Below, piece after piece: positions 490-51,877 of a stretch of DNA of 57,795 nt. A program made the position numbers and the translations under genes. Each line of letters begins with the position of its first letter. Position 1 is the first letter of the stretch. The stretch comes from a virus (Duplodnaviria > Caudoviricetes). The notes under the pieces were generated by a model. It did not search any database. It worked only from the letters and a program-made list of their open reading frames with translations, and was not told the DNA's origin. The DNA is taken from the IMG/VR virus record IMGVR_UViG_3300031857_000216, positions 1-57,795 of that record; one strand, written 5' to 3'.

Positions 490-960
490 TTATTGGAGGA
501 GCCTCCGCGGGGTCCACCCATTCTTCGCAAGGAAGAGCAGGCCATGTCGGATCGCGTCCAGAGCGTGGCCGCCGCCGCCGCGGTGCCAGTACTCGAGCTT
601 CTTCAGGGCCTCGTTGGGGAACATCCGCTTGGCGTCGGACGGGCTCTGATACTTGAGCTCGTTATCGCTTATACCGGCGTCCCTCATGATCTGCTTGAGC
701 ACGCCGATCTGCTCGAGGCTGTAGGGAGCCTGCGAGTTGCGAACCGTCTGCGCGTTGATCGTGAACCGCTCGCAAACGATGTCGAGAACGTAGTCCTCGC
801 TGATCGCCTTCGCGATGATGCCCCTGATCGGGGCAGCAAACTCGTCGGGCTGAACCTCGGCGCTCCACTCAAGCACAGGCTCTGTGTCCTTCGGGGTCCA
901 GGTAAAGCACGACACGCCGGTGGCCTTTCCGGGGTCAACGGCCAGGATCATTCTTTTCAT
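490..960 (-). CDS. RuvC-like Holliday junction resolvase / RNase H-fold nuclease
   Basis: ILAVDPGKATG, IVCERF and HALDAIRH acidic motifs. Start probably ATG 960 (RBS GGAGAG). Confidence 0.75.
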   Translation of the reverse strand: MKRMILAVDPGKATGVSCFTWTPKDTEPVLEWSAEVQPDEFAAPIRGIIAKAISEDYVLDIVCERFTINAQTVRNSQAPYSLEQIGVLKQIMRDAGISDNELKYQSPSDAKRMFPNEALKKLEYWHRGGGGHALDAIRHGLLFLAKNGWTPRRLLQ

Positions 961-961
961 A

Positions 962-2785
962 TCAGTACTTCTCTCCCCAGGTCTCAAGTGGACCGTCGAT
1001 GCCGGAGGTCAGCGGGACCGCCCACCCCTCACGCGTCGTCATGCATTCCTTGACGATACGCATGATCTCCTCGGCGTCCTTACGCGGCGCCTGTAGCACG
1101 ATCTCGTCGTGCACCGGAACGATAAGCAGCTCGGTGAGATCTGCCTGGTCGAGCTTCACGAGGTTTGCCTTGAACACCTCGGCGGCGCCGCCCTGGATGA
1201 GGTAGTTGACCAGCGTGTAGACTCGATTCTCGTCACATGGAATGCGCCGTCCGGTCCAGGTGTAGATGTAGCCTTGGCCCTCCGTCTTGAGTCGGCGCAT
1301 TCCGATGTCCTCAATCTGACGCTGGAAGTGAACCATGCCGGGGAACCTACCATCGAACGCGTCTGACACGGACTTCATCTGCGCCTCATGAACGTTAGCG
1401 GTCAGCGCCTGCTTCGCAACGCCGGCGCCGTAGAGACGACCATAGATCATGCTCTTGATAAGACCGCGGCGCTTGTCTGATCTGCCCATCGACGGGTCGT
1501 TGTACACCTCGCGACCGATCTCGGTGAACGGGTCGGAACCTGTAGCGTCTGCCATGTTGAACAGACTGATGAGGTTGTCGTCCTGCGACAGACTTGCGAA
1601 CATTCGGAACTCGACCTGGTCGAGGTCGGACGTGATGATGACGTGGTCGTCGTCCTTCGGAATGAAGGCGCGGCGCACAACGTCGTCGCCCTTGGGCAGA
1701 GTCTGAAGAGCTGGGTTGGTGATCGACATGCGAGATGTTCGCGCGCCGAGCGTCCTAACGGACGGATGAACAAACCCGTCAACAGACTCGGTGAGGAAGT
1801 TGGAGAAGTAGGTGTTGGCAAGCTTATCAGCCTTACGCTGCTTGAGCACGATGTCGGCAAGATTGGATACCGCCTCGTTGCCGTCACGGATAAGCATCTT
1901 GAGCTGATCCTTGGTGCATGACTTCTGCCCGGTAGGAGTGTATTCGGTGATCTCGGCACCGAGGCTCTCAAAGAGACGAACGAGCTGAACGTTGCTCGTG
2001 ATGGAGGTGCCGCCGTACGTCTGCTTGGCCCAGTCCTTCACCGAGTTGGCGTAGTTCGTGAGCTCGTCGTACTTCCTCCTGGAGTAGTCAAGGTCGACGC
2101 GGGCACCATTGATCTCCATGCGGGTGACGATTCTACGCGTCGCCATCTCGAGCTCGTATGGGCGATGGTACGGGCCGTCGGGTCCGCACTTCTCGTAGAA
2201 CATCTCCCACAGCCGCGTCGTGAGCACGCAGTCCAGCGCGCCGTACGACCAATACGGCTGGAAGCTTGTCGGGACGGTTCCCCACGTCCAACCGTTCTTC
2301 GCAAGCTCCGCGTCGAGCGTGTCCTGTAGCGCGACCGCGCGGCCATCAATGTGCAGCGCCGCCAACCGCTTGAGAGCGCCGGACCCGAGCGGGTCGATGA
2401 TGTGCGCCATGATCATGGTGTCGTGCGCGCGGTGCCACGGCAGATCCCAGCGAGACTGAACGGCAAACCATCGTGCCTCAAACGCAATGTTGTGGCAGAT
2501 GATCGGACCATCAAAGCGATCCATGCCCTCGTAGAAGACGCCCTTCCACTCGTCCCAAGGGATTGACCAGCCCTGCTGGCCATCGCCTACCTGGACGAGA
2601 CGCAGACGACCGTGCCACGGCGATAGCGCGTGGTCGCGTGGGTTGCCGGGCAGCTCGCCGGTTTCTGTGTCAACCGACACCGCGTTGTGAGGACGGCGCT
2701 GGCCGAGCCACTCAAGAAACTCGCGCGCCTTCTCAGTAGAGTCTACGAGATGGAGCTGTACTCCAGAAAGATCCTCAGTTGCCAT
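962..2785 (-). CDS. polA: DNA polymerase family A (3'-5' exonuclease + polymerase, no 5' nuclease)
   Basis: Exo motifs VDTETG, HNIAFE, DTM and YGALD. Pol motif A DLDQVEFR, motif B RGLIKSMIYGRLYG, motif C VHDEIV. Start at ATG 2785 overlaps the upstream gene. Confidence 0.95.
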   Translation of the reverse strand: MATEDLSGVQLHLVDSTEKAREFLEWLGQRRPHNAVSVDTETGELPGNPRDHALSPWHGRLRLVQVGDGQQGWSIPWDEWKGVFYEGMDRFDGPIICHNIAFEARWFAVQSRWDLPWHRAHDTMIMAHIIDPLGSGALKRLAALHIDGRAVALQDTLDAELAKNGWTWGTVPTSFQPYWSYGALDCVLTTRLWEMFYEKCGPDGPYHRPYELEMATRRIVTRMEINGARVDLDYSRRKYDELTNYANSVKDWAKQTYGGTSITSNVQLVRLFESLGAEITEYTPTGQKSCTKDQLKMLIRDGNEAVSNLADIVLKQRKADKLANTYFSNFLTESVDGFVHPSVRTLGARTSRMSITNPALQTLPKGDDVVRRAFIPKDDDHVIITSDLDQVEFRMFASLSQDDNLISLFNMADATGSDPFTEIGREVYNDPSMGRSDKRRGLIKSMIYGRLYGAGVAKQALTANVHEAQMKSVSDAFDGRFPGMVHFQRQIEDIGMRRLKTEGQGYIYTWTGRRIPCDENRVYTLVNYLIQGGAAEVFKANLVKLDQADLTELLIVPVHDEIVLQAPRKDAEEIMRIVKECMTTREGWAVPLTSGIDGPLETWGEKY

Positions 2786-3281
2786 TGTCACTCCCGCCTT
2801 CAACCACGACCACCTCAACGCCACACGTCTTGAGATAATCAAGAACCTTGTACGGATCACGATGCATGTCTGCCTCACTGATCATGCATACCACACGGGT
2901 GATACCGGAATTGGAAATCAGCTTGGCGCACGCGTCGCAAGGCGGGCTGACAATATACATCGTACCGCCAAGACTCTTCGACCTGTCAACGTAGAGAAGG
3001 GCGTTCGCCTCGGCATGAATAGCCGGGCACCCTGTGTACTCGGTTCCGAGAGACGTTACGCCCTGAGCCCGCTCGCACCAGTTGATGCACTGCCCCTGCT
3101 TGGGCCAGTTCGCGGCCGGGCCGTTGTATCCGGTGGCTACGATGTGCTGGTCACTCGAGACGATAACGGCGCCCATCTGCGCGCGCGAGCATCGAGATCT
3201 CTTGGCCACCAGCGCGGCCACACCAAGCCATGTTTCATCCCACGTCGGTCTGTCGTCAGTCGTCATCGCCTTCTTCGTCAT
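2775..3281 (-). CDS. dCMP deaminase (cytidine/deoxycytidylate deaminase family)
   Basis: RPTWD, RSRC, GYNG, HAEANA and PPCDAC Zn-deaminase motifs. Alternative start at 3266. Confidence 0.9.
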   Translation of the reverse strand: MTKKAMTTDDRPTWDETWLGVAALVAKRSRCSRAQMGAVIVSSDQHIVATGYNGPAANWPKQGQCINWCERAQGVTSLGTEYTGCPAIHAEANALLYVDRSKSLGGTMYIVSPPCDACAKLISNSGITRVVCMISEADMHRDPYKVLDYLKTCGVEVVVVEGGSDNGN

Positions 3282-3453
3282 TCTCGTAATCGGACATGTT
3301 GTTGATGGCGAACACCATCACCTTGGACACGAGCTCAAGCGCGTCACGACGGGAGAAGCCGGCCTCCTTGAGAGTGCAATACATCTCGTGCATTGACACG
3401 GCTGCCTCAAGCAGCGGAGATCTCTGGCCGAACTCCTCCTCGTAGTCTCTCAT
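3256..3453 (-). CDS. small hypothetical phage protein
   Basis: 65 aa, ATGA-coupled to the upstream gene; LKEAGFSRRDALEL. Confidence 0.7.
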   Translation of the reverse strand: MRDYEEEFGQRSPLLEAAVSMHEMYCTLKEAGFSRRDALELVSKVMVFAINNMSDYENDEEGDDD

Positions 3454-4295
3454 CGCTGCTCTTTCTCCTTGTTGCGCTCAATCGCCTTGAGCATGGCATC
3501 AGCGTACCACGCCTCCTGTGACGTAAGAGCAACGTGGTCTGTCTTGCCCTTGGCGGCAAGAAGCGCAAGAAGGCCGGACGCCTCAATGGCGCCCCAGGTA
3601 GATCCGGTAATCGGCGGGATCTCCACGATTTGATCGGTCTTCGTAAGCTGCTCGGCGGCGTCGTAGTGCTGCTCGTAGATGTGGAGCGACCCGACGTGGT
3701 GAGCGTACTTACCAGGCTCGATGCCAAGAACGCTTGCCATAGCGATCTGCACGCGAGTAAACTGGAAGAAGTCGTAGGCCGCGCCAAGCCATACGTCGTT
3801 GGACCGCATGTAGACGCTCATGTTGAGCTTGTTGTTGCGGATGCGGAACTGATGAAGAACGGTGCACGGGTAGTCACGCTTGTTTGGTTGATTGTCGTAG
3901 TCCGGGTTCCAGATTGTGACGACGGCCTGCCGCGAGTTCGGGTCGAGCTGAAGCTTCTGCACGACGTGCGCGTACTGGCCCCTGGTGCGTAGACCATACG
4001 CGCCGTGGAAGATTCCGTTGTCCTCGGCGAAGTTCTTGAACTGCGGACCGACGGCAATCACGACGTCGGGAAAGCTGGTGCCTGACAGAAGCTGGCACGC
4101 CTCAACGGCGCCGATGCCGGGAACCGCGTTGCGGCCCACCTTCATGGGCAGCGTGTTGTAGACGTCGTCGATGAGGATTACGGCGTCCTCAATCTCGCGA
4201 GTCTTCATGCCGCGCGGTGCGACCTCATCGCCGTGGCGAAGAACATGCTGAACAAGATCAACGTAGCCGTTGACGCCGTTCTCAATCTCAATCAT
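3450..4295 (-). CDS. thymidylate synthase-superfamily protein with dCMP-type Asp (candidate dCMP hydroxymethylase/methylase)
   Basis: SRQAV, DYPCT catalytic Cys, MRSNDVWLGAAYD and SLHIY motifs. ATG 4295 overlaps the kinase stop (ATGA). Confidence 0.9.
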   Translation of the reverse strand: MIEIENGVNGYVDLVQHVLRHGDEVAPRGMKTREIEDAVILIDDVYNTLPMKVGRNAVPGIGAVEACQLLSGTSFPDVVIAVGPQFKNFAEDNGIFHGAYGLRTRGQYAHVVQKLQLDPNSRQAVVTIWNPDYDNQPNKRDYPCTVLHQFRIRNNKLNMSVYMRSNDVWLGAAYDFFQFTRVQIAMASVLGIEPGKYAHHVGSLHIYEQHYDAAEQLTKTDQIVEIPPITGSTWGAIEASGLLALLAAKGKTDHVALTSQEAWYADAMLKAIERNKEKEQR

Positions 4296-5302
4296 TGAAG
4301 TTCCCATTCTCCTACGCTTTCTCTCTTGCTGATTTTTTGGATGGCGACCCCGTACTCATGACAGTCAGAGTAGCGGAAGCGGCGAACGTATTGCGGATGC
4401 GGCAGCGTGACGTAGTCGTCGGCGTGTATCGTTGTCCGCAGCACCGCCTTCTCCGCAAGACGACCAAGCGCGGCCACCGGCGGGCTGCCAAGATCACGAT
4501 GCAACGCGCCGAGGCGGGCTGGATCGATCTCGTTGCCGTTCACGATTCCGACCGTCTGCCAGAAGCCGTCAGGTAGCCCGCGCATGAGGAAGTCGCCGGA
4601 GCTTGTGGATACCGGCATGAACGGTAGGATCGTCTCCTCGCCGAACTCCTCGGTGATGTTGCGCCTATCGCCGACGATCAGCACTGATGGAGTTGGGACG
4701 CCAATGTACTCGGGGTACGCGCCAAGAAATCTGGCCTTGTTCGCGATCTCCGCGGCGATGTCAAGAATACGGCGCGCGTACGCGGGATACTCGCGCATTG
4801 GCATGTCACCAGGTGAAAGCACGTCGGCAAGAATAGCCTCGTTCACACTGGTACGTGAGTACTCCTTGTGGATTGTTGACAGCTCATCAAGATTGACGAA
4901 GTCGTCGCCGCGAGAGCCTACGCGCTTGATGATCACGTCAATCGGCTGATACAGCAGAAACTGAGCCATTCCTCGAGATTGCATGAACAGCTCGACCCAG
5001 CGCCAGCCAGACTTGCCGAGTAGACCGTATCCATCCGTGTTGGTATGAGGACGCTTGAGCGGCGCGTACGTGCGCTCGCCCCAGTGCCAGCGATCGGCCA
5101 GGTGAATCTCGTCAAACAGGTTGACGTTCTGAAGATCAATCGCATATTCCTTGAGCAGGCAGCGACGCGTCTCCTCGGGCGGCCTACCCTTGTGATGCTT
5201 GATGATCTTAAGGTCGGGCTGCTCGGCAAGCAGCTCCTCCTCGAGCGCCGCGATCAGCGTGCTCTTACCGGAGCCGTCGCAACCTTCGATTGCAATAAAC
5301 AT
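4292..5302 (-). CDS. thymidylate/dNMP kinase fused to a uracil-DNA-glycosylase-like domain
   Basis: N-terminal P-loop FIAIEGCDGSGKST and DRWHWGE. C-terminal YIGVPTPSVLIVGD, LPF..SG.FL, VAALGR.A and LPHPQY resemble UDG-superfamily motifs. Confidence 0.75.
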   Translation of the reverse strand: MFIAIEGCDGSGKSTLIAALEEELLAEQPDLKIIKHHKGRPPEETRRCLLKEYAIDLQNVNLFDEIHLADRWHWGERTYAPLKRPHTNTDGYGLLGKSGWRWVELFMQSRGMAQFLLYQPIDVIIKRVGSRGDDFVNLDELSTIHKEYSRTSVNEAILADVLSPGDMPMREYPAYARRILDIAAEIANKARFLGAYPEYIGVPTPSVLIVGDRRNITEEFGEETILPFMPVSTSSGDFLMRGLPDGFWQTVGIVNGNEIDPARLGALHRDLGSPPVAALGRLAEKAVLRTTIHADDYVTLPHPQYVRRFRYSDCHEYGVAIQKISKRESVGEWELQ

Positions 5303-5335: not shown

Positions 5336-5806
5336 TCAGGGAATCATCTCAATTCTGTAAACAGCCTCGATGCCCTTGTCTAGATCCGATGCCGACTCAA
5401 GAAGGCGCTGAGCAACGTGGGTCAGGTATCGCGACCCGCTGTTGTCGTACTTGTAGAGCGCCTCAAGAACGGCGGACGCGTCGTCGCTGACCTGCGCCCA
5501 GTATCGGTTCTTCTCAGGAAAGATCACCGGAGCGTGAAGCGACGGGCGGCACTCGTCGCACGGAGTAACCTCGTGACGAATCTCTCTCGTGTCGATCTCC
5601 TGAAGCCCGTAGCGCTTCACAAGTTGGCACGCGCCGGTGTGATAGATCACCGAGACACCGACGCGCGAAAGAACGTAGGAGCCGTTGTCGGTCTTGTAGA
5701 GCTCAAACTCGATCCAGCGGTTGGAACCGCGCCGCCACGAGGACGACTTGCCGAGGAGCTTCCCATTGAACTGTAGGATCCGAGATCCGTCTTTTACTTC
5801 GATCAT
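5336..5806 (-). CDS. hypothetical phage protein
   Basis: Clean ORF from ATG 5806 (MIEVKDG), with H..C and CDEC possible Zn ligands and its own -10 element upstream. Confidence 0.75.
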   Translation of the reverse strand: MIEVKDGSRILQFNGKLLGKSSSWRRGSNRWIEFELYKTDNGSYVLSRVGVSVIYHTGACQLVKRYGLQEIDTREIRHEVTPCDECRPSLHAPVIFPEKNRYWAQVSDDASAVLEALYKYDNSGSRYLTHVAQRLLESASDLDKGIEAVYRIEMIP

Positions 5807-5876
5807 TTTAGTGTCTTTCCCGTGACTTGACACTCATCATAACATGGTTTGAATATGAGATGTGTATCATTTCTGG

Positions 5877-7040: not shown

Positions 7041-9072
7041 CTTTATCAATCTCCGGTTCTTGGATCAGCCTAAGCCGAACGTTCTCTGGGAATGCGGGGT
7101 TGTTTGGTACGCTTACCGAGAATCCCTCGATCTTGCGCACGATGATGTCTGTCCGCGGCTCAAGGTTGCTTGCTAGGCGAAGCAGAACAAAAGGATCGTT
7201 GATGATCAGCGCGCACCAGTCTCCGGGCCTGTAGGTGTTGACGGTCGGTGAAAGCGAGCCGTTGACGGAGATGGTGAAGTCCCCGAGCGGCGGGCGAAAC
7301 TCCGATAGGTAGCGCCTCGCATGATCGTACAGGTCGTCCTCGTCGAAGACATCGTTCTTTGATGTCTCGGCGTCAAGAAGCGGCCATCCGGCCGTCAGCA
7401 GGTCGTTTGCCGTCGCAACGGAGTACGGCTGGCTTGCATCGCTACCCAGCGTGCTGTCGTTGCCGACGACAAAGAATCTAGTTGCGGCGTCTTCGGCAGA
7501 CTCGCGAAGCTCGACGTCGTTGATGTTTCCGGGATACTCAAAGACGTAGTACTGAGCGCCATACCGCGACAGCGGCGGTGCCTCGCCTGGCGCCAGCGGC
7601 GGGTCAGGTTCGGGAAAGTCAATTGGAATAAAGACAAACGTTCTCGTGAACGAGTTTGTCATCGGGTCAAACTCGCAGTCGATGCGATACTCAAACCCAT
7701 TCAGCGCGTCCGCGTACTCATCGAGCTCGTCTCCGACGGATCGCTGCTCAAAGCCGCGAATGATCTTGTTCGTGACGTGCGTCTCTCCGCTGTAGCTTTC
7801 AGTCGAAAAGTCGATGAGCGGGTCGGCGTTTGCCGGAAACGATCCATACGTTCCATAGATTATTGACGGAGTCTTTGTTACCGTTCCGCCCACGCTGGTT
7901 GTAAGCGATGGAACCTTTACGTTGCTGTCGCTTTTAAAGATAATGATCGGATTCGGAGTCGTGAAGATCTGAGTGATTCGCCTAAGACCGTTGAAGATAA
8001 CATCGCGCCCGGAGGCATCGTCAACTCCTGCAACAACGACGTAGTCACCAACGGAGAACCCGTGAGCAACGGACGTTTGAATTGCTGCGATAAATAGCGG
8101 AAGAGGGAATATTACGTTTGTTGGATCAGACGCACCCTTCTTTACGACGCTTCTTGTGACGGATGAAACGGTTGCGGGTGCCACGTTTGCAAAGTCAAGG
8201 GCAAAGCTGATTGTGGTATCTGTTATAGCGGTAACCTCATGATAGCCGTCATACGGCGATCCCATGTTCACGACCTGCAGCGTTTGGCCAACAGACAGCT
8301 CGTGACCTGGACACGTTAGCGTCGCAACTCCGTCCGTGATCTCCCTGGCGGTGATCGTCGCGGTAAACTCCTTCGACGGCATGATCTCGTCGTTGGGAAA
8401 ATCAACGTTGATGAAGTCATTGAACATGTGCCGCATAAGGCTGCGAACGTAGTCGTAGGTGTCGACGCGAACGATGACGGTCACGCTGGTATAGGTGCCG
8501 TTTGGTATCGGGCTGCCGTTTTCATCCTCAATCTCGACTGAGAACGTCGTTGACGTCGGCGCCGGACTGGAAAGAATCGTCTTGACGCCGGAGTACCTAA
8601 AGTTTCCAGTCTCGATGAATGACACGCGCACAGGCATGCCGGCAGCAAACGCAAACTCTCCGCTCGAGATCGTTACGGCGCCAACGCCTAGGCTGCCCGA
8701 CACAACGATGGACGCGGTAAAGTCGTTGCTGTATGTCTTCCAGATGTTCCGCTTGTAGAGGTAGCTTGTAAACTCAGTACCGTTGACGGAAAGCATTCTG
8801 TCCTTGAGAGAGTACGACCGCGACCAGATGATTCCGCCCCACACGCACTCGCCGTTTCTTACGACGTACAGCGCGGTCTTGCCGGGCATCGTGTTCTCGT
8901 ATAGCGAGTAGATGTCGGTGGCGTCAACCACGGGAATCTTCCCACTGAACGTGCCGGCGCCGTTGAGGGCGCGCTCATATGACACGTCGCTGAACGGCAC
9001 CTCCTCGATGACAACGTTTGTCAAAAAGTCAGCAAGGAAGTAGCGATACTCTGCTACCGTTACCGTCGCCAT
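7030..9072 (-). CDS. minor tail/baseplate hub protein (ReqiPepy6 Gp37-like) with inserted beta domains
   Basis: N-terminal YERALNGAGTFSG...YVVRNGECVWGGIIW and C-terminal FEYPGNI, GWPLL, YRPGDW. Lies downstream of the tape measure and Dit genes. Confidence 0.75.
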   Translation of the reverse strand: MATVTVAEYRYFLADFLTNVVIEEVPFSDVSYERALNGAGTFSGKIPVVDATDIYSLYENTMPGKTALYVVRNGECVWGGIIWSRSYSLKDRMLSVNGTEFTSYLYKRNIWKTYSNDFTASIVVSGSLGVGAVTISSGEFAFAAGMPVRVSFIETGNFRYSGVKTILSSPAPTSTTFSVEIEDENGSPIPNGTYTSVTVIVRVDTYDYVRSLMRHMFNDFINVDFPNDEIMPSKEFTATITAREITDGVATLTCPGHELSVGQTLQVVNMGSPYDGYHEVTAITDTTISFALDFANVAPATVSSVTRSVVKKGASDPTNVIFPLPLFIAAIQTSVAHGFSVGDYVVVAGVDDASGRDVIFNGLRRITQIFTTPNPIIIFKSDSNVKVPSLTTSVGGTVTKTPSIIYGTYGSFPANADPLIDFSTESYSGETHVTNKIIRGFEQRSVGDELDEYADALNGFEYRIDCEFDPMTNSFTRTFVFIPIDFPEPDPPLAPGEAPPLSRYGAQYYVFEYPGNINDVELRESAEDAATRFFVVGNDSTLGSDASQPYSVATANDLLTAGWPLLDAETSKNDVFDEDDLYDHARRYLSEFRPPLGDFTISVNGSLSPTVNTYRPGDWCALIINDPFVLLRLASNLEPRTDIIVRKIEGFSVSVPNNPAFPENVRLRLIQEPEIDKVGE

Positions 9073-9114
9073 TGCTTGTTCTCCACGTCAACTCGTCGCT
9101 TTGCCTGGCACATA

Positions 9115-10338
9115 TTATCCGATCCAACCCGACCTGTAGTACACCTTCATGGACGCCGTACCGTTTACGGTACCCTCGTCAATGAAGCTGACGACGTTTG
9201 CTCCTGCTGCAAGAGTCAACCAGTCAACGAGCGTGTCAACGCGAGCGCGAGCGCCAAGCGTGATGCCGTTGAGCGCGACCTTGCGCTCGTAGGTGTCAAT
9301 CTCAAGAAAGTCGGCGTCTCGCGTAAGCGTGCCCGACGGGCTGATCGGCGTTTCAAGAAAGTCGGACTCGTCGGCAAGAAAGCTGGCCTTGTCATCGGCG
9401 GGAATGTCGCTGACCTGAAACGTGCCCGTCAGCGTCGAGGTCACGCCGGAAAGATCAATGAAGTCGCCAACCGCAAGCGTATGATTCGCCGACGTTGTGA
9501 TCGTCACCACTCCGCCAGTCGCAACGACGCTCGTGACCGAGCGGGTCTCTGACGCGCGCAGGGTATCGGTGATTGTGAATAGCTGATCCGTCGCATCGTT
9601 GTAGATCGTGGCGGGACCCGACGTTGGCCCGGTTACCTCGATGAAGATGGGCACGCTCGTGTTGCCGACGTTCGTGATTGTTCGCTCGCCGGTCTCCGGA
9701 GTCGAGTTATTCTTGGCGGGAATGATCTGGGTGTTGTAGCCCTCGTCGTCGCTCTCGTTCCACGAGTACTTGATCGGATCCGCGGCGCGCAGGCCGATCG
9801 AGAACTCGGTTCTTCCGCGCGCGTTGATTGTCGCGATCTCCGGGCGACCGCTGAGGCGAACGTATGCCGCGCGTGTTGGGTTCTCGCGCGTCTTGAGCCA
9901 GGCTCCTGTGTAGACGAGGCTGGTGGCGCGGACGAGAGTGTCACGCGCCGCGGGCAGGTATTCGGGGTCAGGTGGAAGAATCACACCGTTGAGCGTGATC
10001 TGACGTGCCTGCCAGCGGCCGCGAGCATCATATGAGCCATCGCTCCAGCCGCGGTCAACATCGGGGATCTCTGGGTCTGGGTGAACCCACCAGCCCTCGA
10101 TGTCCGTGCACACCCAGATGACGTTGTTGTCATCGATGCGGTTGAGAGTTAGGTCACCGATGCTGACATCCTCCTGCAGCTTCATGCCGGTAAACACCGG
10201 CGGCGGGAGCGGCGTTAGCGATCGGCGTACCTTGGTATGCTCGCCGTCCTGCCCCTGCGGATCGAGGAACGCGCCGGCGCCGTACGCACCGGCGCCGTAG
10301 AGCGCCGTGCCGTACACTGGGTCGTATGGTGCTGGCAT
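9115..10338 (-). CDS. distal tail (Dit-like) minor tail protein
   Basis: IEGWW, ARQITLNG, LRAADPIKY, TNVGN..P.IEVTGP and WLTL..G.N...Y.SGW pattern typical of siphophage tail proteins. Confidence 0.75.
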   Translation of the reverse strand: MPAPYDPVYGTALYGAGAYGAGAFLDPQGQDGEHTKVRRSLTPLPPPVFTGMKLQEDVSIGDLTLNRIDDNNVIWVCTDIEGWWVHPDPEIPDVDRGWSDGSYDARGRWQARQITLNGVILPPDPEYLPAARDTLVRATSLVYTGAWLKTRENPTRAAYVRLSGRPEIATINARGRTEFSIGLRAADPIKYSWNESDDEGYNTQIIPAKNNSTPETGERTITNVGNTSVPIFIEVTGPTSGPATIYNDATDQLFTITDTLRASETRSVTSVVATGGVVTITTSANHTLAVGDFIDLSGVTSTLTGTFQVSDIPADDKASFLADESDFLETPISPSGTLTRDADFLEIDTYERKVALNGITLGARARVDTLVDWLTLAAGANVVSFIDEGTVNGTASMKVYYRSGWIG

Positions 10339-10369
10339 CTTCTATTCCTCTATGTCCTGGCTAGCTTGG

Positions 10370-11401
10370 TCAGGCGCTTGCCATGATCTCCCACGCGGTG
10401 CCGTTTGACACGAGCGTGGCCCAGGCTCCGTCCGTCGCGGGAAGAATCGCCGTGCCAGCGGAACCACCAATGCGCGGAATGACGTTTGACGCGTTGGAGA
10501 CAACGGTCTGCGCCTGGATCGTTCTAAACATAAGCTCGCGGCCCGTCCACGATGCAGCTGCCGGCAGAGTCACCGTCACCGTACCGGCGCGGTTGGCGAT
10601 GATCCAGTTGTCCGTGTCAAGAACCGTGTACGTCGCGTCCGTCGTGGTTACCGGCGCGCCACGGCCAAATGATCCGGTGATGTCAACCGTGTTTACCGGC
10701 GCCACCGTCGAGCCAACTCGCGTCTTACCGGCGAGTGCGTTCTGCGCCGTTCCCGCCATGTAGAGGTTCCACATGTTCGCCGCCGCGGCGATTCCACCGT
10801 AGAAGCCATAGTCGTTCGTGGCGCCCGTAAGCGTGGAGTCGACGTAGAAGCCATACTGATTTGTCACCGTCGCACTGGCGCCCTTCGTGCCCTGAACGGC
10901 GCGGAAGTGAATAAGGTCCGTAAGCGTGAATGATGCGTTCTGCACCGCGATCGACGTCGCGACGCCGATGGCCGCGGTGGTCACACCGGACTGAACCTCA
11001 CCGTTGGCGAACACCGCGTACGAGGTGGTCGCGCCGGAGATGTTGCGATTCACGCCGAAGTTCACCCCGGCCGCGGCGGCCGTACCGACGCTGATTGACG
11101 TGCTTGAAATGAACGCGCCGGTGATGGTAATGGTGTTGGTCGTAAGCGAGTTCGTCAGCGTCGCGCCTGAGACGCTAAGACTGCTGAGCGTGCCGATCGT
11201 CGTCAAGCTCGAGGTCACGACGGTCGCAGGAAGCGTGGTCCCAACCAGCCCGCTGGCAAGTGCCTTGGTCGCGGGAATGCTCGACGGGCTTTGGTATGTG
11301 AAGCGGACGTCGATCGCGTCAATCGCTTCGTTCAGCACTGTGCCCCAGCCGGTGTCTCCGTTGTCCGGCAGTGGTGTTGTTCCATCAATAAGTGTTGCCA
11401 T
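10370..11401 (-). CDS. tail fiber / minor tail protein
   Basis: N-terminal LPDNGDTGWG..LN anchor motif, Thr/Ala/Gly-rich beta sequence, C-terminal TLPAA..GR domain. Confidence 0.65.
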   Translation of the reverse strand: MATLIDGTTPLPDNGDTGWGTVLNEAIDAIDVRFTYQSPSSIPATKALASGLVGTTLPATVVTSSLTTIGTLSSLSVSGATLTNSLTTNTITITGAFISSTSISVGTAAAAGVNFGVNRNISGATTSYAVFANGEVQSGVTTAAIGVATSIAVQNASFTLTDLIHFRAVQGTKGASATVTNQYGFYVDSTLTGATNDYGFYGGIAAAANMWNLYMAGTAQNALAGKTRVGSTVAPVNTVDITGSFGRGAPVTTTDATYTVLDTDNWIIANRAGTVTVTLPAAASWTGRELMFRTIQAQTVVSNASNVIPRIGGSAGTAILPATDGAWATLVSNGTAWEIMASA

Positions 11402-27482: not shown

Positions 27483-30400
27483 CTACACCACGGATGGTGG
27501 CACGAACTCCTGAGCGATCCTTTTTCTAATTTTATCGATGAGATCTGTTCTACCTTCTTTTTCAAGATCCATAATCAAACGAAACACGAGCGCCATGACG
27601 TCCGCCTCGAATTTGTCTTCGACACGGTTGATCAGATCAATAAGAGATGTAGACCCTGACGTAATAGCGTCATTCTCGAGGTACAGTCTTGCCTGCTTAA
27701 TGGCTCCTTCGAATCCGCCGCTATACGCGCCAGGCCCCATGACAACTCCAAGAGGCGTGTACCCGTACAAATTCCCGCTCATACCTCTCTCGGCAAGTTG
27801 TTTATAGATCTCAATCGCCTCGTCGATGCCGATCTGCCTTGGGGAGGGAGGGATGCCTGGTACGGCGTCATCGTAGTCGACAGACGGCCGGTATTCGTAT
27901 AGCCTGCCGTCGGGATGAACAATGAGCAGATTTCCGTTGCCTTCCACCCTCGCGTACACCCTCGAACCTATCGGAGCGGTTCTATAGCGAAGACGGCTGC
28001 CTGTCGCGAAATCAAGAAACGTATTGTACAAGACTGCGTCATGTGATGCGTAGTTAGATAGTTCGTAGAGCTCAGGCAACTTGATCAAACCGATCTCCTC
28101 GATGCTGTTCTCGAAGATGTCATCACTTGGGCCCGAGGGGTCCTTTAGTCTTTTCTCGTAGTATCTGGTGTCGAGTGCGTTGAGCCTGACCTTCCTCGAG
28201 GCATTCTGAGAATCCTCGCTCAGCTTGATGAATTCCTCAATTGGCACGCCGTTGATCTCGGTTACGCCTCTTCTTCTGAGCTCCTCAAGTAGATCGTCGC
28301 GGATTTCGCTAGACACAACGACACCAACGGCGGCGTCAATGCCGACGCGACCTTTGATCATCGTCTCATACATAAACGGCAGTGTTTCACTGTAGACTCC
28401 CATCTGATAGCCGCCCTTTGGCGTCCTCGATCCAAACTGATCTGTGGAGTTTGCGTAGAGGTCTGATCTCTCATAGATATTGGCGGCGTCAAAGATGATC
28501 GTCATAGATCCGTACATTGGATCAGCAATCGTCTTAAAGCCTTTTCTTGGAGACAGATAGACGTAGTCCGCGCCACCGCTACTGATGTCTGTCTTGCTTG
28601 ACATGCCGCTGACTGGTATGCCCTCAAGCGTTCTTGACGTCGTAGACAGCAGCGCACCAAACCCGCCGTGCTCGGGGCCGACCAACGCAGCTACAAGATT
28701 CTTAATCATCCAGTCCTGCGCCTCACTCAGGGTGATCTCTTCTCCATACAGAGCCGTGTAGTCGCTTGCTGCGGTCCACCGGTCCGCGGTCATCGTGTGG
28801 ATGAAGAATCCCGTGTCAGTTCTCTCCATCATATCGAAGACAAAGTCTTCAGGCATGATGTAGCGAACTAAGCCCGAGCTGTCTACGACCACCTTCAAGT
28901 CCTCTGGACCGATTCCGTACCTGCTCTTGATCTGCCCAAGAAGATCGTCTCGCCTATCCTGCTCGATGACGTTGTTTGCTGGGTCATTTATGCCAACAAG
29001 TAGACTGATGAGGCGATTCTCGATGAACACCCGCATGTCCTGCTCCTCGGCCGGTCGCGGAGACCGCACTCCCGCCTTCTCAAGAAGCCGAGCGATCACC
29101 TCCGGCGCATCGGCGCCGTCTACCTTGTCTATCGGAACGTCAATAGTGACCATGTTGTGGTATGCATTTGGGCCAGGCAGCCTTGCCTCTGACTGCGAGG
29201 CGATCGAGGTGAGACTTGGGTCTGTCGTCGATCTTACGAGAGTAATGTCGGCATCGGTGTCATCGTCTAGGTAGCTGTATACAGCGGTAGCTGCGCCTCC
29301 GCCCGTCGAAAAGCTCGCAAAGAACCTCTCGCTGATGACGATGTTTCCTTCGTCGTCGACAGAGGTGGTCGGTGCAAGATATCTGTCCCTAACTTCCCAC
29401 TCGGCGTCGTCAGACGCCGCGATCGCGAGATCACTTCCTGCCCACGGAGTCAGCTTGAAGCGAAGACGAAGCATTCTTTCGCCGCTCGGCGTCACGATCG
29501 TCATCGCGCGAACCTCAAGGTCCTCGATGTCGCCGGCGTCGATGGCGGACGCCAGCACCGGCATCTTGTCGCCGTCCTTATTGATGACGCGATCGACGAC
29601 GTCCATGAGAGATGGAACGTCCGTTGATCCGCCAAACGGCTTTGAGCTTAGGCTCTTTGTTGTCTCGGGCTCAAACCTGGGTCTACCCGTTGGCTCGATT
29701 ACGACGGGCTTATCGTCGACTACATCTACAGTTGAGTCAGAGTCCTTCTTGTTGTCCTGGCCAACAACCGCGATTCGGACGCGCTTCACGACGCCGTTGG
29801 AGTCCGTAACCTTGCTGACAACCCTGAACGTCGTGCCGCGGTCAAGAAGAATCTCATGCTCACTTGTGAGGCTGCTCAGTGAGCCAAGAGTCTGGTTGAC
29901 ACTGACTCCGCGCGTGCCCGCCGGCACCGCGATCTCAAGAACAAGTCCAAACTTGTCGTCATCGTCTCCGTACCTAGAGAACTGCTCGCCGGTGCTTGGG
30001 CTCAGACTTGTTGAGGAGTATCCTAGATCGTGAAACACCGCTCCAACAGGGTAGTCGGCGATTTCTCGGGCGTAGTCGCTATGAATGCCACGATGAAGAA
30101 CAAGATCAACCGGCGTGGTTGGCGCCGCCTCAAAGAGCCTGTCGAGATCTGCGACAAGATCATCAGCCTTCTCTCTAAGATTCGCAAGCTCGTCGGGAGT
30201 CTCGACGTAGTGAATGTCGGTTATATCGCCGCCGCGAAGATGCGTGTTGATGCCCATGTAGTCCGTGTCGGTGTAGTTCTCGAGCGCGGTATAGCTCTCC
30301 GCTAGCGGAAGATCATCAAAGTCAATGTCAGGATCGCCCCTATCAACACCGAATTCAGCCTCGTCATACGCAGATGCAAACTTATCCTGCGCGGCTCCAG

Positions 30401-33400
30401 CGGTACTTAGGGGCGCGATTTGGAGGAACGGATCGTCGCCGGCGTCAACGGAGTCGGTCGCCTCGTCGTCGTCGCTTGTTGCCGCAAGAAATATGGACGC
30501 TGCAGATCGCGCAAAGTCGGGGTGGAGCACCCCTTGCTCGCGCATGAGATTGATCTCGTCCGCAGTGAACCACCCGTACTGTGTGTTCTCGCCGTCCGCC
30601 TTCTCAAGGTCAATATTTGGCGATAGAAGAGATGGGTCGGCCTTGAAGATCTGCGTGGTGTATGCCCAACCAGTTGATGGCTCAAACACGTGAGTGCCAA
30701 TGAGGTCGAGGCCCTCGATCATCGCGCCCATCTCCTCAAGGAACTCCTCGCGAGCGGTGATGCCCGTCGTGTCCTTTGAGTTCAGCCTGTCCTTGTGCGC
30801 TCCACCTGGGTACGCCCACTTGCCGCCGCCGCCGGAGATTCCTGGCGCGCGCCTGGCAAGAAGATACGTATGTGAGCCCGTGTACTGGTTTATTTCTGCG
30901 CTGCGGATGAGCGCGCCGGCGGCGCCGTACCTGCCCCAGTATCGTTTTCCATCAATGGCGAAGTAGTATCCCTCGCCGTCGTCTGGGTCAGCCGTTCCGC
31001 CGTTGACCGGAGCAAAGAACGGAAGCATCGGCGGAGTCAGCACCCCGGCGCGGAGATCGTAGACGTCGCTCACCGAGATGTTGTCCGCGCTGTAGACACC
31101 GTCTTCATCCTGTGAGATCTTGTAGCCTCGCCATGTTCCGCCGCCGTCGCCGCCGTCGCCATCCGGCGCTACCTCTTCGACGTCTGGCTGCGGAGCTGGT
31201 GTCTCATCGGTAGTAGGTGCCTCGGTCTTGCGCCTCTGGCCGACCACGGCAACGCGCATGCGTGCAACGCCGCCATCCGGGTACTCAACCTTGCTGACGA
31301 CCCTAAACGTTGTGCCGCGGTCGATAAGAATCTCTTTTTCTTCAAGATTGGAGTCGGCAAGTCTCTCCATGTCAAGAGCATGGCTCCCTGCTGGAAGAAC
31401 AATCTCGACGATTAGTCCCCTGGAGACGGCTTCGAACGAGTACTCGCCCTCGACAAAGGGCAGCGTGGCTGACGCGTCCGTTGACGTCGACGTAAACGCG
31501 TGCTCAACGAAAAGATCGCCGACCTCGGCGTCCTCGAGCATGTCAATATACTCGCTATCTTTTGTTCCGTGAACTCCACGGTACAGAATAACGTCCTGGG
31601 TCGTCGTTGGGTGTAGATCATAGTAGCGATCCATGACCGCAACTTCATCTTTTGAATTCTTCGGTACACCATCGTGGCGACGAAGATCGCTGTTGATCTG
31701 TTGGTATCCATCCTCCACGTATTCCTGGAGAACATCTGGGAGACCGTACTCCTCCTCAAGCACGGGAATCTCGTCGAAGAGGCTAGGGCCGTAGCTCTCG
31801 CGCATCTCAAGAAGCATCTTCTCTACCTCATCTGCGCCGGAGACTGGCGCAGTCTGAAGATCGGGATCGACGTCGCTAAGCGTTGACTCGTCGATGCCCG
31901 GCTGCGGAGAGAACGGGTCGGTCTCGTCGGAGAAGTTTAGCTCGCTGCCCTTCCACATTCCATGTGAGGCAAGTCTTGCGATGGCGTTCGGGGACATGTC
32001 CGATAGCTGAGATGCAGTGGGAGCAAATGCCTTGTTCGTTTCATCGATCACCTGCTCGTTGGCGTACGAGCCGTGGTCAGCATGGAGGCTGCTCTCTACT
32101 CCAAGCTCCATGGCCAACTTGGCTGCGAGCGCGTCGGCACCCTGCGTTGGAGAGTACTGCTCGCCACCCTCGAACACAAGAGCGTTGCGATTTGCCGTCT
32201 CGTCGATCTGCTCTCCGAAGCGAGAGATCGCGGTCTCTCGATCTACGCCCATGAGGTTCATCCAGTATGCTATCGCTTTCTCACGATCTCCTGGGTTGAC
32301 TCCGCCCAACTCCTTGAGCGCATCGGAGTACATCCTGTCAACCTCGTCCTGCGACGTGCCTGGCTCGATCTTCAGGACGCGCACGGAATCCTTGGGAAGC
32401 ACAAGAGGCTGACCGGGAGCCGGCGACATAAAGGTGTCAACGACAAGAAGGTTGTCTAGCGAGTCTGGGTTTCTGTCGATCGTCGGCTGCAACCCGGAGA
32501 CGATGATCCACCTCGGCTTGTCCTCGTGACCCGTTCTAAGCATATGCCCGGCGACAACGTGGTTAAGCGCAAAGTGAATCGTGCCTCGCCCGTAGGCGTA
32601 CCGGCCAATCTCGTCCTCCTGTATCCAGTCTCCGCTTGGGCGCAGAAGCACGTTGCCCTCGTCGTCGTACTCCGGCTCAAACGAAGTCTCGTGAGTAAGC
32701 ATCAGCTGCTCGGTTGTTACTTCCGCGAGACGCCCGTCGGTGATCTGCTTGTTGCCTGACTCCTCAAGAAACTCTTGTTTTTCTCTCCGGCTTTGGGCCT
32801 TTCTTTCGTCTGCAGATTCACGTCCGAGTGAGGCAAGCCTCTCGAACTCTGCCATGGCGTCGCCATCTCCGCGCGAGCCGGCATAGAGAAGCGCTGATAC
32901 GTACGGCGCGACCTGCTGCGGTCCGCCGAATGACTCGTCCCTGTACGCGTCCTCCATGAGATGCGCGACGGCATCGGCAAACTTGATTGCCGTTTCCTTG
33001 CCTTCCTCGCTGTCGTAGTCGAGTCCGGCAATAACGTATGGGTTGATTGGCAGCAGGTCAACGTCGTCGTCCAGTTCAAAGTCAAGATCTACGACGTCCT
33101 CTGGGTCGTCTCTTCTCCAGCTTTGTCCGTAGCCGACGTTGCTTCGTTCCTTGTCCGGTACGCCGAATGCGATTCTTCTCTCGTTGCCGATCCGCCAGAC
33201 GTCGACGGAGATGTTTGCATCGCCAATTCTGACGGATCTTTTCTCGTCGGGCTCCATCTTGAGCTCGCCGTTAGTAAGAATCTTCTCCGCCTTCTTCACC
33301 TTTGCAAGTGGAGCAAGCGCCGATGAACGCAGTTCTTCGTCTATAACTTCAGGGGTTGGAGTCGCCCCCGAAGGGGCGTCACCTTTTGGGACTTGTAACT

Positions 33401-43747: not shown

Positions 43748-44236
43748 TCAGACGACGCCGGTGTTGAACAGGTATGACCGGAGCTGCCAGTCCCACTTCT
43801 TGTGCATGCCGTCACGTGACGCCATGAAGTCGGCGATTCCCTGCTCGTCAGCGGCGTCGGCGGCCTTGAAGCAGTCGTTGATACTCTGAATCATCACCGT
43901 GTTTGCCTGAAGAAGATCGATGAGCATGGCCTTGGCGTCGCAGCCGCAGTCCATGTCCTCGATCGACGTGAGGCGCGCGAACTCAACGAGACGATGAGGC
44001 GCGTTGAAGCCAAGCTTCAGCATGTTCTCGGCAGTTTCGTCAATCATGCCGTAGACGTCCTCGTAGATCGTCCCAAAGAAGTCGTGAAACTGCGAGAAGA
44101 GCATTCCCTTGACGTTCCAGTGATGACCCTGCGCCTTAAAGCTGAGGTTGACGGCGTTGGCAAGAACCTCGGCAAGAGCCTCGGCAACCTCGCGCTTTGC
44201 GCCCTCCTTTAGGTCGATCATATATTCCATGCCCAT
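43748..44236 (-). CDS. dps: Dps family DNA-protecting mini-ferritin
   Basis: HHWNVKG..F..FH..F...Y......DE.AE signature; C-terminal HKKW.WQL. Confidence 0.9.
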   Translation of the reverse strand: MGMEYMIDLKEGAKREVAEALAEVLANAVNLSFKAQGHHWNVKGMLFSQFHDFFGTIYEDVYGMIDETAENMLKLGFNAPHRLVEFARLTSIEDMDCGCDAKAMLIDLLQANTVMIQSINDCFKAADAADEQGIADFMASRDGMHKKWDWQLRSYLFNTGVV

Positions 44237-50668: not shown

Positions 50669-51472
50669 CTAGTCGATTGGCACGACGGTCAGCGCGTCGC
50701 TGGTCGGACGCTGGTTGCCGTCGCTGGGCACGTTGACGACGCGACCGCGATACACCATCGTTGACGAGCCGCCGCCGTCGAGATTGTACGCCTCAACGCA
50801 GCCTCGGCGCTTCATCATGTCCGCGAGCTCGACGAGCGTCATGCCTCGGCTAGCCGACGACCTACCGTCCACGACGACGACGAGGTAGTGATACGGCGCG
50901 ACCATGCACACGGCTGTCCGCGGGTGCCTCGAGCTGTAGGCGTCAACGCTGAACGCCGCGTTGCCCGCTCGCATCTGCTGCTCGGTCAGCGGCACGCCGT
51001 CGTTGATGAGCCACGGGCCGAACGACAGCGTCTCGAGGACGCCGCCGGCGACTAGCTTCCCGGCGGTCGTCGTTCGCTCGTCGTAGAGCGCGAGGGTGCC
51101 GTCCGCGTTGATGGCGAGACCGTGGCGCGTCGGCACGTTGACGTAGGTCGACCCGCCGCGGATGACGATGCCATCGGATCGGTAGTCGTAGAAGTCGGCG
51201 TTGACGGCGAGCTCGGCGCCGGCGACCTCCGCGATCTGCAGCGTCGTCTGCCTCGAGCCGAGTGCCCTCGCCGTGGCAAGCCGCATGTCCCTGATCTCGG
51301 CGACGTAGTACACGACGCCGCCCTCGCTGACGGTCGAGACCTCGAGGCTCGGCGACGGCTTTCGCTCGGGAGGCGTCGAGTCGGTTGGCGCGCTGACGCG
51401 ATCGGCACTCGAGCACGCCGCAACGACAACCGCGAGGAACGTGAACGCCGCTACAGCTTTTCTGCTACCCAT
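50669..51472 (-). CDS. phosphodiester glycosidase (NAGPA/DUF2233) family lipoprotein
   Basis: Signal peptide with lipobox VAAC; AVNADF, HPRTA, VVVDGR, GMTL.ELA and AYNLDGGGSSTM. Confidence 0.85.
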   Translation of the reverse strand: MGSRKAVAAFTFLAVVVAACSSADRVSAPTDSTPPERKPSPSLEVSTVSEGGVVYYVAEIRDMRLATARALGSRQTTLQIAEVAGAELAVNADFYDYRSDGIVIRGGSTYVNVPTRHGLAINADGTLALYDERTTTAGKLVAGGVLETLSFGPWLINDGVPLTEQQMRAGNAAFSVDAYSSRHPRTAVCMVAPYHYLVVVVDGRSSASRGMTLVELADMMKRRGCVEAYNLDGGGSSTMVYRGRVVNVPSDGNQRPTSDALTVVPID

Positions 51473-51876: not shown

Positions 51877-51877
51877 G

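Follow-up and report, generated by a model that had tools for sequence, protein, structure and literature searches.

In phage T4, the activities relevant here are supplied by gp42, gp1, the deaminase Cd and gp56, and the neighbors of gene 42 are beta-gt, imm and gene 43, which encodes a family-B polymerase. In phages Xp12 and PaMx74, a pyrophosphohydrolase or hydrolase, a thymidylate synthase (TS) homolog, a dCMP deaminase and a dihydrofolate reductase (DHFR) occur together, and the TS homolog carries aspartate at the position of Asn177 in E. coli ThyA. The Xp12 enzyme served as a positive control for the synthesis of 5-methyl-dCMP (5mdCMP), and PaMx74 is described as replacing cytosine entirely with 5-methylcytosine (5mC) (bioRxiv 10.1101/2024.12.05.627091). 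A broader pattern comes from the MetaGPA papers (PMC8670742; bioRxiv 10.1101/2024.12.05.627091), in which Asp177-type TS homologs located less than 3 kb from a dCMP deaminase, often together with DNA_pol_A and a nucleoside triphosphate (NTP) pyrophosphohydrolase, are enriched on contigs with modified cytosine; the two genes are neighbors on 104 of 149 modified contigs, as against 17 of 277 unmodified ones (bioRxiv 10.1101/2024.12.05.627091). The link between Asp-type TS homologs and dCMP deaminases in cytosine-modified phages is already published (eLife 2021; bioRxiv 2024), and the residue rules that we apply to the TS homolog are also in print. We compared with these systems a gene module from the IMG/VR virus record IMGVR_UViG_3300031857_000216 (Caudoviricetes), a linear contig of 57,795 nucleotides (nt) that is rated 43% complete by CheckV and is referred to in its entirety as the window.

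The module matches the MetaGPA pattern, and we read it as a T4-like pathway that would supply 5-hydroxymethyl-dCMP (5hm-dCMP) for the phage's own DNA, a reading to which we give a probability of roughly 60%. A preliminary description of the window had proposed, with deamination of the modified dCMP to dTMP or hmdUMP as its alternative, a pathway to 5-substituted dCMP, whether hydroxymethyl, methyl or other. The sequence-level tests and the published Asp177/deaminase link agree with this proposal, and the residues by which hydroxymethylases are told apart from methylases and 5-hydroxy-dCMP synthases narrow it, most likely, to 5hm-dCMP. The module and its immediate neighbors comprise the following features:

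5336..5833, minus strand: orf165, a conserved upstream open reading frame (ORF) of 165 amino acids (aa) that travels with the module; its real start is probably Met10
4292-5302, minus strand: kinase, whole ORF, 336 aa, with a thymidylate-kinase-like domain and a predicted uracil-DNA glycosylase (UDG)-fold domain
4748..5302, minus strand: N-terminal domain of the kinase, residues ~1-185, thymidylate-kinase-like, with the P-loop EGCDGSGKST and a DRWHWGE motif
4295..4732, minus strand: C-terminal domain of the kinase, residues 191-336, predicted UDG-superfamily fold, with the motifs LIVGD(R)RN, GIVN and LPHPQ
3450-4307, minus strand: TS homolog, 285 aa, matching Pfam Thymidylat_synt (PF00303) at 1.1e-27
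3256-3453, minus strand: small ORF encoding an acidic product of 65 aa, located between the TS and deaminase genes
2775-3281, minus strand: deaminase, 168 aa, a dCMP-deaminase-family zinc enzyme with HAE and PCDAC motifs
962..2785, minus strand: PolA, a DNA polymerase of family A that includes a 3'-5' exonuclease region, matching PF00476 (DNA_pol_A) at 5.9e-53 and phrog_17 at 3.4e-106
490..987, minus strand: RuvC-like resolvase homolog that closes the conserved block on its downstream side, matching phrog_1981, a family of unknown function, at 4.3e-22

The TS homolog is supported as a cytosine-type enzyme by every sequence-level test that we ran. Its PF00303 match spans only profile positions 3-226 of 266, and among PDB sequences it matches both a TS (3ix6, 7.6e-22) and the CMP hydroxymethylase MilA (3.4e-20). 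Residues 168-179 read RSNDVWLGAAYD, and window bases 3771-3773 (GTC) give GAC on the minus strand, that is, Asp179, which verifies both the motif and the codon position reported earlier. In HMMER alignments, Asp179 pairs with the Asn of 'RSADIFLGVPFN' in the Brucella TS (3ix6) and with the Asp of 'RANDAFRGAVSD' in MilA; a MAFFT alignment pairs it with its counterpart Asp in T4 gp42 (numbered Asp179 in PMC6400193), in agreement with the equivalence to E. coli Asn177 and T4 Asp179 drawn in the preliminary description. Exchange of Asn177 for Asp moves the preference of these enzymes from dUMP to dCMP (PMC8670742; PMC13326640). The Asp is present at this position in all 82 family loci (motif search and inspection). 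A full HMMER scan of 1.84 billion representatives further returned 12,320 relatives, of which 573 have E <= 1e-30; among the 150 best 50%-identity representatives, a Cys-Thr...Asp arrangement occurs without exception and an Asp stands three residues before the catalytic Cys in 146.

Analyzing the remaining diagnostic positions, we found that the enzyme reads D/C/T/D/D at E. coli positions 143/146/147/169/177 (Asp145, bases 3873-3875; Cys148, 3864-3866; Thr149; Asp171; Asp179, 3771-3773). T4 gp42 has the same five residues, the Xp12 and PaMx74 enzymes have N/C/P/D/D with a retained TS-type C-terminal tail, and the uracil hydroxymethylases SPO1 gp29, CP-51 and SP-10 have D/C/N/D/N; Cys148 aligns with the catalytic Cys of every one of these anchor enzymes. 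The canonical ThyA features Asn177, Leu143 and His147 are thus replaced by Asp, Asp and Thr, and the tail has no match. Three residues ahead of the catalytic Cys, TS has a Leu that is thought to keep water out (PMC13326640; PMC6400193), whereas hydroxymethylases have Asp or Glu (L143D/E as a marker; PMC13326640). In the T4 dCMP hydroxymethylase, Asp145 activates the substrate water and the D145N variant yields no 5hm-dCMP (PMC6400193), which suggests that the Asp of the window enzyme has been kept for water use. We favor hydroxymethylation over methylation because the hydroxymethylase anchors (T4 gp42, SPO1 gp29, CP-51 and SP-10) all have Asp at position 143, whereas the methylase anchors Xp12 and PaMx74 have Asn there and Pro after the Cys. 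Substitution of Asp169 by Asn marks the 5-hydroxy-dCMP synthases, such as RB69 gp48 and DLP3 gp80 (PMC13326640); since Asp171 is kept, the window enzyme is not of this D169N type. By the criteria derived from MilA, in which Ala and Lys replace Ser and Arg and mark ribonucleotide use (PMC5175136), its Ser169 and Arg126 are deoxyribose-type residues. The C-terminal 60 residues do not resemble the tail YNP(R/K)PEV(V/I)E found in Xp12 and PaMx74 and form a long extension, as opposed to the short end of gp42.

The gene content of related phages points the same way. Reductive methylation oxidizes folate and thereby requires DHFR, whereas hydroxymethylation requires none (PMC6400193), and a DHFR gene directly follows the TS and deaminase genes in both Xp12 and PaMx74. 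We examined five complete or near-complete relatives: the nearest named one, Actinomycetia phage DSL-LC01 (metagenome-assembled, 129 kb), and four IMG/VR relatives that are 90-100% complete. Each of the five encodes a single TS homolog, no ThyX and no DHFR (PF00186), and the absence of DHFR from the lineage favors hydroxymethylation, as only reductive methylation needs it. In a 165-sequence tree, which contains no canonical ThyA and is used as supporting evidence only, the window clade falls within a radiation that contains gp42 and the 5-hydroxymethyluracil (hmU) enzymes, and the branch that leads to PaMx74 has a length of 2.2; identity to the window enzyme is 27% for T4 gp42 and 25% for the PaMx74 enzyme. 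At the T4 Ser94-x-Tyr96 element, the window reads Gly102-Ala-Tyr104 and its family mostly G-A-Y, and the verified hmU enzymes read A-P-Y, likewise without Ser or Thr. Because the Ser94 element is Gly, we do not file the TS homolog in the gp42 family proper; we assign it to the wider pyrimidine-hydroxymethylase branch and predict that it works like gp42.

The unusual part of the module is the kinase, which is fused to a second domain. The preliminary description had called it a dNMP kinase, and a thymidylate-kinase-like fold is indeed what we found, but the C-terminal domain had been overlooked. The kinase matches phrog_761 'thymidylate kinase' at 1.5e-15, and its score against Pfam Thymidylate_kin (20.5 bits) stays under the cut-off of 27. 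In a Foldseek search, the AlphaFold2 model of the 336-aa protein (pLDDT 92.8) matched YorR (2axp, 4.6e-7; 3kb2, 1.4e-6) and many thymidylate kinases at around 1e-5 and up to 1e-4; since all of its matches were of kinase type (YorR, thymidylate kinases and dCK), we folded the C-terminal domain separately. The model of this domain alone (~146 aa, pLDDT 90.7) aligned in VIA-align with UdgX (6ail; Z 11.1, rmsd 3.1, 129 residues aligned), the family-4 UDG 1l9g (Z 10.7), 2d3y (Z 10.7) and the UDG domain of phiLo PolA (9qhs; Z 8.9), and in Foldseek with 1l9g (3e-4) and 6iod (3.4e-4). Sequence methods gave less: the match to Pfam UDG PF03167 has an E-value of 0.1 (13.1 bits, cut-off 24.3), a profile search of PDB sequences returned no match to the domain, and none of its 71 metagenomic homologs carries a precomputed Pfam domain. 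Across 30 sequences of the domain, G21, L36-P37-F38 and P113 never vary, and conservation reaches 90% or more at D22, N65, H112 and Q114. The conserved VGD(x)RN, GIVN and HPQ segments follow strands 1, 2 and 4 of the model, respectively, and LIVGD and LPHPQ fall where UDG motifs A and B lie, as placed by fold and inspection. The Asn after the second strand (in GIVN, at least 90% conserved) occupies what we take to be the uracil-reading position of UDGs. Family-4 UDGs carry a four-cysteine iron-sulfur cluster; with its single Cys, the domain does not belong to that cluster type. The models thus support a UDG-superfamily alpha/beta fold, with glycosylase activity as a prediction. By analogy, our best guess is that the domain may provide uracil surveillance tied to a dUMP-rich precursor metabolism.

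Fused UDG domains are known from another phage enzyme: the polymerases of SPO1- and SP15-like, thymine-modified phages carry active ones, with the motifs LLVGE and LNHP (PMC13697223; 9qhs), similar to LIVGD and LPHP in the window. There, however, the partner is a polymerase and the modified base thymine, whereas in the window the partner is a kinase, the domain is shorter (~146 aa) and cytosine is the predicted target. The same kinase-UDG fusion is present in Stenotrophomonas phage AXL3 gp29 (hhalign probability 94.7%, E 6e-8) and, by inspection, in Bacillus phage G gp315 and an unannotated ORF of phage ctUtU524. AXL3 (gp27-gp30), phage G (gp315-gp319) and ctUtU524 combine it with a dCMP deaminase and a D/C/T/D/D TS homolog that is 32-34% identical to that of the window. 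Motif A reads VGED in AXL3, AQNPGG in phage G and VGDRRN in the window, and AXL3 also encodes ThyX and an adjacent PRA-PH pyrophosphohydrolase, unlike the window. In phage G, gp315 (474-1469 of its locus) is labeled 'thymidylate kinase' and has a C-terminal UDG-like domain (AQNPGG ... HPAY); the dCMP deaminase gp317 and the D/C/T/D/D TS homolog gp319 accompany it. In ctUtU524, from spring water, the unannotated kinase-UDG ORF (~3080-3990 of its locus) precedes a gene annotated 'pyrimidine hmase'. Gordonia phages GMA2 and Sixama possess the module, with kinases that have no UDG domain. In the limited collection of literature searched, we found no description of a kinase-UDG fusion, and the available text of the MetaGPA papers (PMC8670742; bioRxiv 10.1101/2024.12.05.627091) does not mention one.

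The deaminase is readily assigned to its family, by PF00383 (dCMP_cyt_deam_1; 4.5e-20, 71.9 bits against a cut-off of 25), phrog_174 (1.1e-44) and the structures of human dCMP deaminase (2w4l, 1.2e-16) and T4 Cd (1vq2, 1.8e-14); the HAE and PCDAC motifs are visible in its translation and in the alignments to 2w4l and 1vq2. Deaminases selective for 5mC and 5-hydroxymethylcytosine (5hmC) are polyphyletic, and one of them acts on triphosphates only (bioRxiv 10.1101/2024.12.05.627091). As the trait is polyphyletic, specificity is not readable from the sequence, and the window enzyme may provide dUMP for the host TS, as in T4, thymidine from 5-methyl-dC nucleotides, as in Xp12, or 5-hydroxymethyl-dU from 5-hydroxymethyl-dC nucleotides.

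The preliminary description had also suggested searching for glycosyltransferases or a dCTPase. On the window contig, Pfam detected neither a glycosyltransferase nor an NTP pyrophosphohydrolase in 48 further ORFs or ORF pieces; in the relatives, however, an NTPase was found in all five. It is an all-alpha enzyme of the dUTPase_2 family (1.1e-12), encoded in DSL-LC01 and in four of the four other relatives ~10 kb past the helicase gene, beyond the point where the window contig ends, and by analogy it would be the kind of enzyme that could take the part of T4 gp56. MazG (PF03819) is absent from the five relatives, and a Pfam search of the window ORFs revealed no thymidine-hypermodification genes. 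Directly upstream of the NTPase, the four IMG/VR relatives encode two paralogous proteins of ~330-350 aa, which are also present in DSL-LC01 (7285-10906). One of the two is annotated as a glycosyltransferase in DSL-LC01, and in the ESM Atlas one falls close to clusters of T4 beta-glucosyltransferase (0.94); the paralogs have no relevant PDB sequence or Pfam match, fall in PHROGs only into a family of unknown function, and in a profile comparison (hhalign) with T4 beta-glucosyltransferase reached a probability of 0.5%. We regard them as candidates for further modification of hydroxymethylcytosine (hmC), an unconfirmed lead. A UDP-galactopyranose mutase, considered as a possible family trait, was found only in DSL-LC01, one of the five genomes, and was set aside.

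From the genes, residues, folds, order, overlaps and conservation described, we infer the following substrates, products and state of the virion DNA. The TS-fold enzyme would take dCMP, recognized through Asp179, and methylene-tetrahydrofolate, and form an exocyclic methylene intermediate on Cys148; water activated by Asp145 would then add to this intermediate, giving 5hm-dCMP and tetrahydrofolate. The thymidylate-kinase-like domain would phosphorylate the product, the host NDP kinase would convert it to the triphosphate, and the phage PolA, which would have to accept the modified dNTP, would incorporate it. The dCMP deaminase would send part of the dCMP pool to dUMP for the host thymidylate synthase, as T4 Cd does, and the all-alpha dUTPase/dCTPase-family enzyme seen in relatives beyond the contig end would keep dCTP and dUTP from DNA. 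The kinase-fused UDG-fold domain most likely binds or excises uracil that enters DNA through the dUMP-rich metabolism.

The predicted set of activities is that of T4 gp42, gp1, Cd and gp56, and gp42 shares with the window enzyme the D/C/T/D/D residues and the lack of a TS tail; the deaminase corresponds to Cd, and the relatives' all-alpha NTPase to a gp56-like role. The systems differ in several respects: the window kinase, unlike gp1, resembles thymidylate kinases and carries a fused UDG-fold domain; neither a thymidylate synthase nor a DHFR of the phage's own is encoded in the lineage; the genes make up a single operon with overlaps beside a family-A polymerase, rather than the T4 arrangement; and an actinobacterial host is predicted for DSL-LC01. 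With Xp12 and PaMx74, the window shares an Asp-type TS directly upstream of a dCMP deaminase within a replication module, but no kinase gene is annotated next to their TS.

A scheme like that of Xp12 is the likeliest of the alternatives, although we consider it unlikely. Here, the TS homolog would reductively methylate dCMP to 5mdCMP, the kinase would feed the polymerase, and the deaminase would turn the methylated mono- or triphosphate pool into thymidine nucleotides, so that no dUMP-dependent TS would be needed. Deamination of a modified nucleotide is a documented route in phages of the Xp12 type, the pairing of TS(Asp177) with a deaminase is its hallmark, five of seven such TS homologs assayed made 5mdCMP, and the deaminase mSCD-B5 turns 5mdCTP into dTTP (bioRxiv 10.1101/2024.12.05.627091). 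The joining of TS homolog and deaminase in one overlapping operon fits this scheme, as does the lack of ThyX or a second TS homolog in the five relatives, which leaves them without a dTMP synthase of their own. The residues speak for 5hm-dCMP instead: three positions before the Cys the window has Asp, not Asn, Thr rather than Pro follows it, the TS-type tail is absent, and the T4 D145N result suggests that this Asp has been retained for water (PMC6400193). Moreover, none of the five relatives encodes the DHFR that adjoins these genes in Xp12 and PaMx74, and the PaMx74 enzyme is remote in the tree. Ordinary thymidylate supply with canonical DNA, in which the deaminase would provide dUMP, the TS dTMP and the kinase dTDP, is how the homologs of DSL-LC01, the Gordonia phages and AXL3 are annotated and how the AXL3 paper interprets its module (PMC7504290), and the three activities would make a coherent dTTP pathway. 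We nevertheless hold it to be very improbable: Asp stands at the Asn177 position in all 150 best representatives, a substitution that shifts preference from dUMP to dCMP (PMC8670742; PMC13326640), the Leu143, His147 and C-terminal tail that mark a true TS have all given way to other residues, and AXL3 DNA resists 35 restriction enzymes with G or C in their sites (PMC7504290).

The fused UDG domain raises the question of whether the modified base might be hmU, made via cytosine. The enzyme would make 5hm-dCMP, the deaminase would convert it to 5hm-dUMP and the kinase would phosphorylate this product, so that thymine or both pyrimidines would be replaced; the UDG domain would clear plain uracil and spare hmU. 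Seven of 90 deaminases linked to Asp-type TS homologs gave 5hmdU from 5hmdC nucleotides in vivo (bioRxiv 10.1101/2024.12.05.627091), the kinase is of the thymidylate-kinase type rather than the T4 gp1 type, the C-terminal domain keeps the GIVN Asn, and fused active UDG domains have so far been confined to thymine-modified phages (PMC13697223). Set against this, every hmU phage examined uses an Asn-type enzyme on dUMP, the window shows no thymidine-hypermodification genes, the deaminase's specificity cannot be read from its sequence, and AXL3, with the same module, also encodes ThyX and has DNA that is cut at AATT and TTAA (PMC7504290); we therefore regard the hmU route as doubtful. Equally doubtful, and more speculative in kind, is the idea that one Asp-type hydroxymethylase and its coupled deaminase supply both 5hm-dCTP and 5hm-dUTP, that this abundant freshwater lineage, perhaps with AXL3 and phage G, replaces both pyrimidines, and that the kinase-UDG protein is a dedicated kinase for 5-hydroxymethyl-pyrimidine nucleotides whose glycosylase domain clears nascent DNA of unmodified uracil. 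If true, it would amount to an hmU route that bypasses dUMP hydroxymethylases and would link precursor synthesis to base-excision proofreading in a new way.

Several points weigh against the 5hm-dCMP pathway that we prefer. The signature argument rests on few characterized anchors, of which the direct ones are T4 gp42 and Xp12, and the Ser/Thr of the published T4 signature is absent (Gly102). At 27% identity, gp42 is a distant relative; its branch in the ThyA-free tree is very long (3.59), and its placement may for that reason be an artefact. The deaminase-linked Asp-type TS homologs that made 5mdCMP, five of the seven assayed (bioRxiv 10.1101/2024.12.05.627091), could include members of the window clade. 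The absence of a phage-encoded route from dUMP to dTMP fits an Xp12-like scheme at least as well, and the NTPase and any sugar transferases do not lie on this 43%-complete contig. The motif equivalences of the UDG-fold domain derive from fold matches to a model and from inspection, and the chemistry proposed for this phage and its close relatives is predicted from sequence.

The phage belongs to a lineage of ~130-kb freshwater actinophages, with an actinobacterial host inferred from the host prediction for DSL-LC01, whose gene order (kinase, TS, deaminase, PolA, RuvC-like, helicase) is that of the window. At least 113 IMG/VR stretches encode relatives of the TS homolog at 65-77% identity, several of them on contigs of 115-136 kb, and 80 of the 113 were retained. 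The window stretch is present in 20 sequencing runs, in all of them as assembled contigs, which cannot reveal base modification. The block running from orf165 through kinase, TS, small ORF, deaminase and PolA to the RuvC-like gene is syntenic among 85 loci (tblastn): TS was found in all 85, the deaminase in 82, the kinase in 81, PolA in 80, orf165 in 78, and the small ORF and the RuvC-like gene in 74 each, with most absences falling at contig ends.

All genes of the module region lie on the minus strand, and the five ORFs and family assignments of the preliminary description are borne out, with Pfam and PHROG support. Its observation that the kinase, TS, small ORF, deaminase and polA genes overlap one another likewise holds at all four junctions. 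Kinase and TS overlap by 16 nt, or by a 4-nt ATGA if the TS begins at Met5; TS and small ORF overlap by 4 nt (ATGA); small ORF and deaminase by 26 nt, or 11 nt counted from the second ATG; and deaminase and PolA by 11 nt if PolA begins at the ATG at 2783-2785. Since alignments with relatives begin only at residue ~30-36 of the longer ORF, which starts from the GTG at 2878, the ATG appears the likelier start of PolA. The small ORF has no Pfam family and only a weak best PHROG match (phrog_19638, E 0.0079); it keeps its position in the 74 loci and is absent from DSL-LC01. For orf165, neither Pfam nor PHROG gave a match and the ESM Atlas gave unnamed viral clusters only, yet the 78 loci in which tblastn detected it include Gordonia phages GMA2 and Sixama, where copies of 30-35% identity lie just upstream of the kinase. 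The DSL-LC01 homolog of the gene at 490..987 carries the annotation 'RuvC-like resolvase'.

If the 5hm-dCMP reading is correct, hmC DNA, which has so far been documented mainly in T-even-like proteobacterial phages, would be the norm among the members of a widespread family of freshwater actinophages of ~130 kb. Among the literature titles listed, a limited collection, none reports hmC in an actinophage, and the DSL-LC01 paper mentions neither thymidylate nor deaminase. The enzyme family is large, with at least 573 clusters at E <= 1e-30, and its 150 best representatives all bear the cytosine signature. The reading would also matter for the evasion of restriction in lakes and, in metagenomes, for sequencing bias and the calling of modifications, and it would affect public labels, which are thymidylate synthase and thymidylate kinase, with gluconate kinase appearing in two records. 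Because the kinase-UDG fusion is shared with the cultivable phages AXL3 and Bacillus phage G, it is directly testable at the bench.

Asn-type TS-fold enzymes, the uracil type, also occur in actinophages. Brevibacterium phage LuckyBarnes and Glutamicibacter phage Montesquieu encode ~516-aa enzymes that read D/C/N/D/N; one adjoins two genes annotated 'beta-glucosyl-HMC-alpha-glucosyltransferase' and the other an aGPT-pyrophosphorylase gene, which suggests thymine hypermodification in these phages.

Elsewhere in the window, a second gene of the cytidine/dCMP-deaminase fold (51454-51870, minus strand) lies within the listed ORF 51451-52371, with HAE and PCARC motifs and a PF00383 match of 8.9e-9 (35.6 bits). 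The gene probably encodes only ~130-140 aa, because the N-terminal ~170 residues of the 306-aa ORF look like a wrong-frame, Ser/Arg/Pro-rich translation; its PDB matches are weak, and the five complete or near-complete relatives have no homolog. Beside the terminase gene lies a gene for a protein with a phosphodiester-glycosidase (NAGPA) domain (50669-51541, minus strand; PF09992, 1.2e-38), and a ferritin-like, Dps-type gene (43748-44236, minus strand; PF00210, 6e-17) adjoins the portal gene. In a single ORF of 5050 aa (27483-42635, minus strand), Pfam locates an RNase_T exonuclease domain near residues 2423-2517 or beyond and, near residues 4116-4278, an ADP-ribosyltransferase-exoenzyme domain (PF03496, 1.2e-31), together with a weak match to WYL; DSL-LC01 has an 8.5-kb ORF at a different place.

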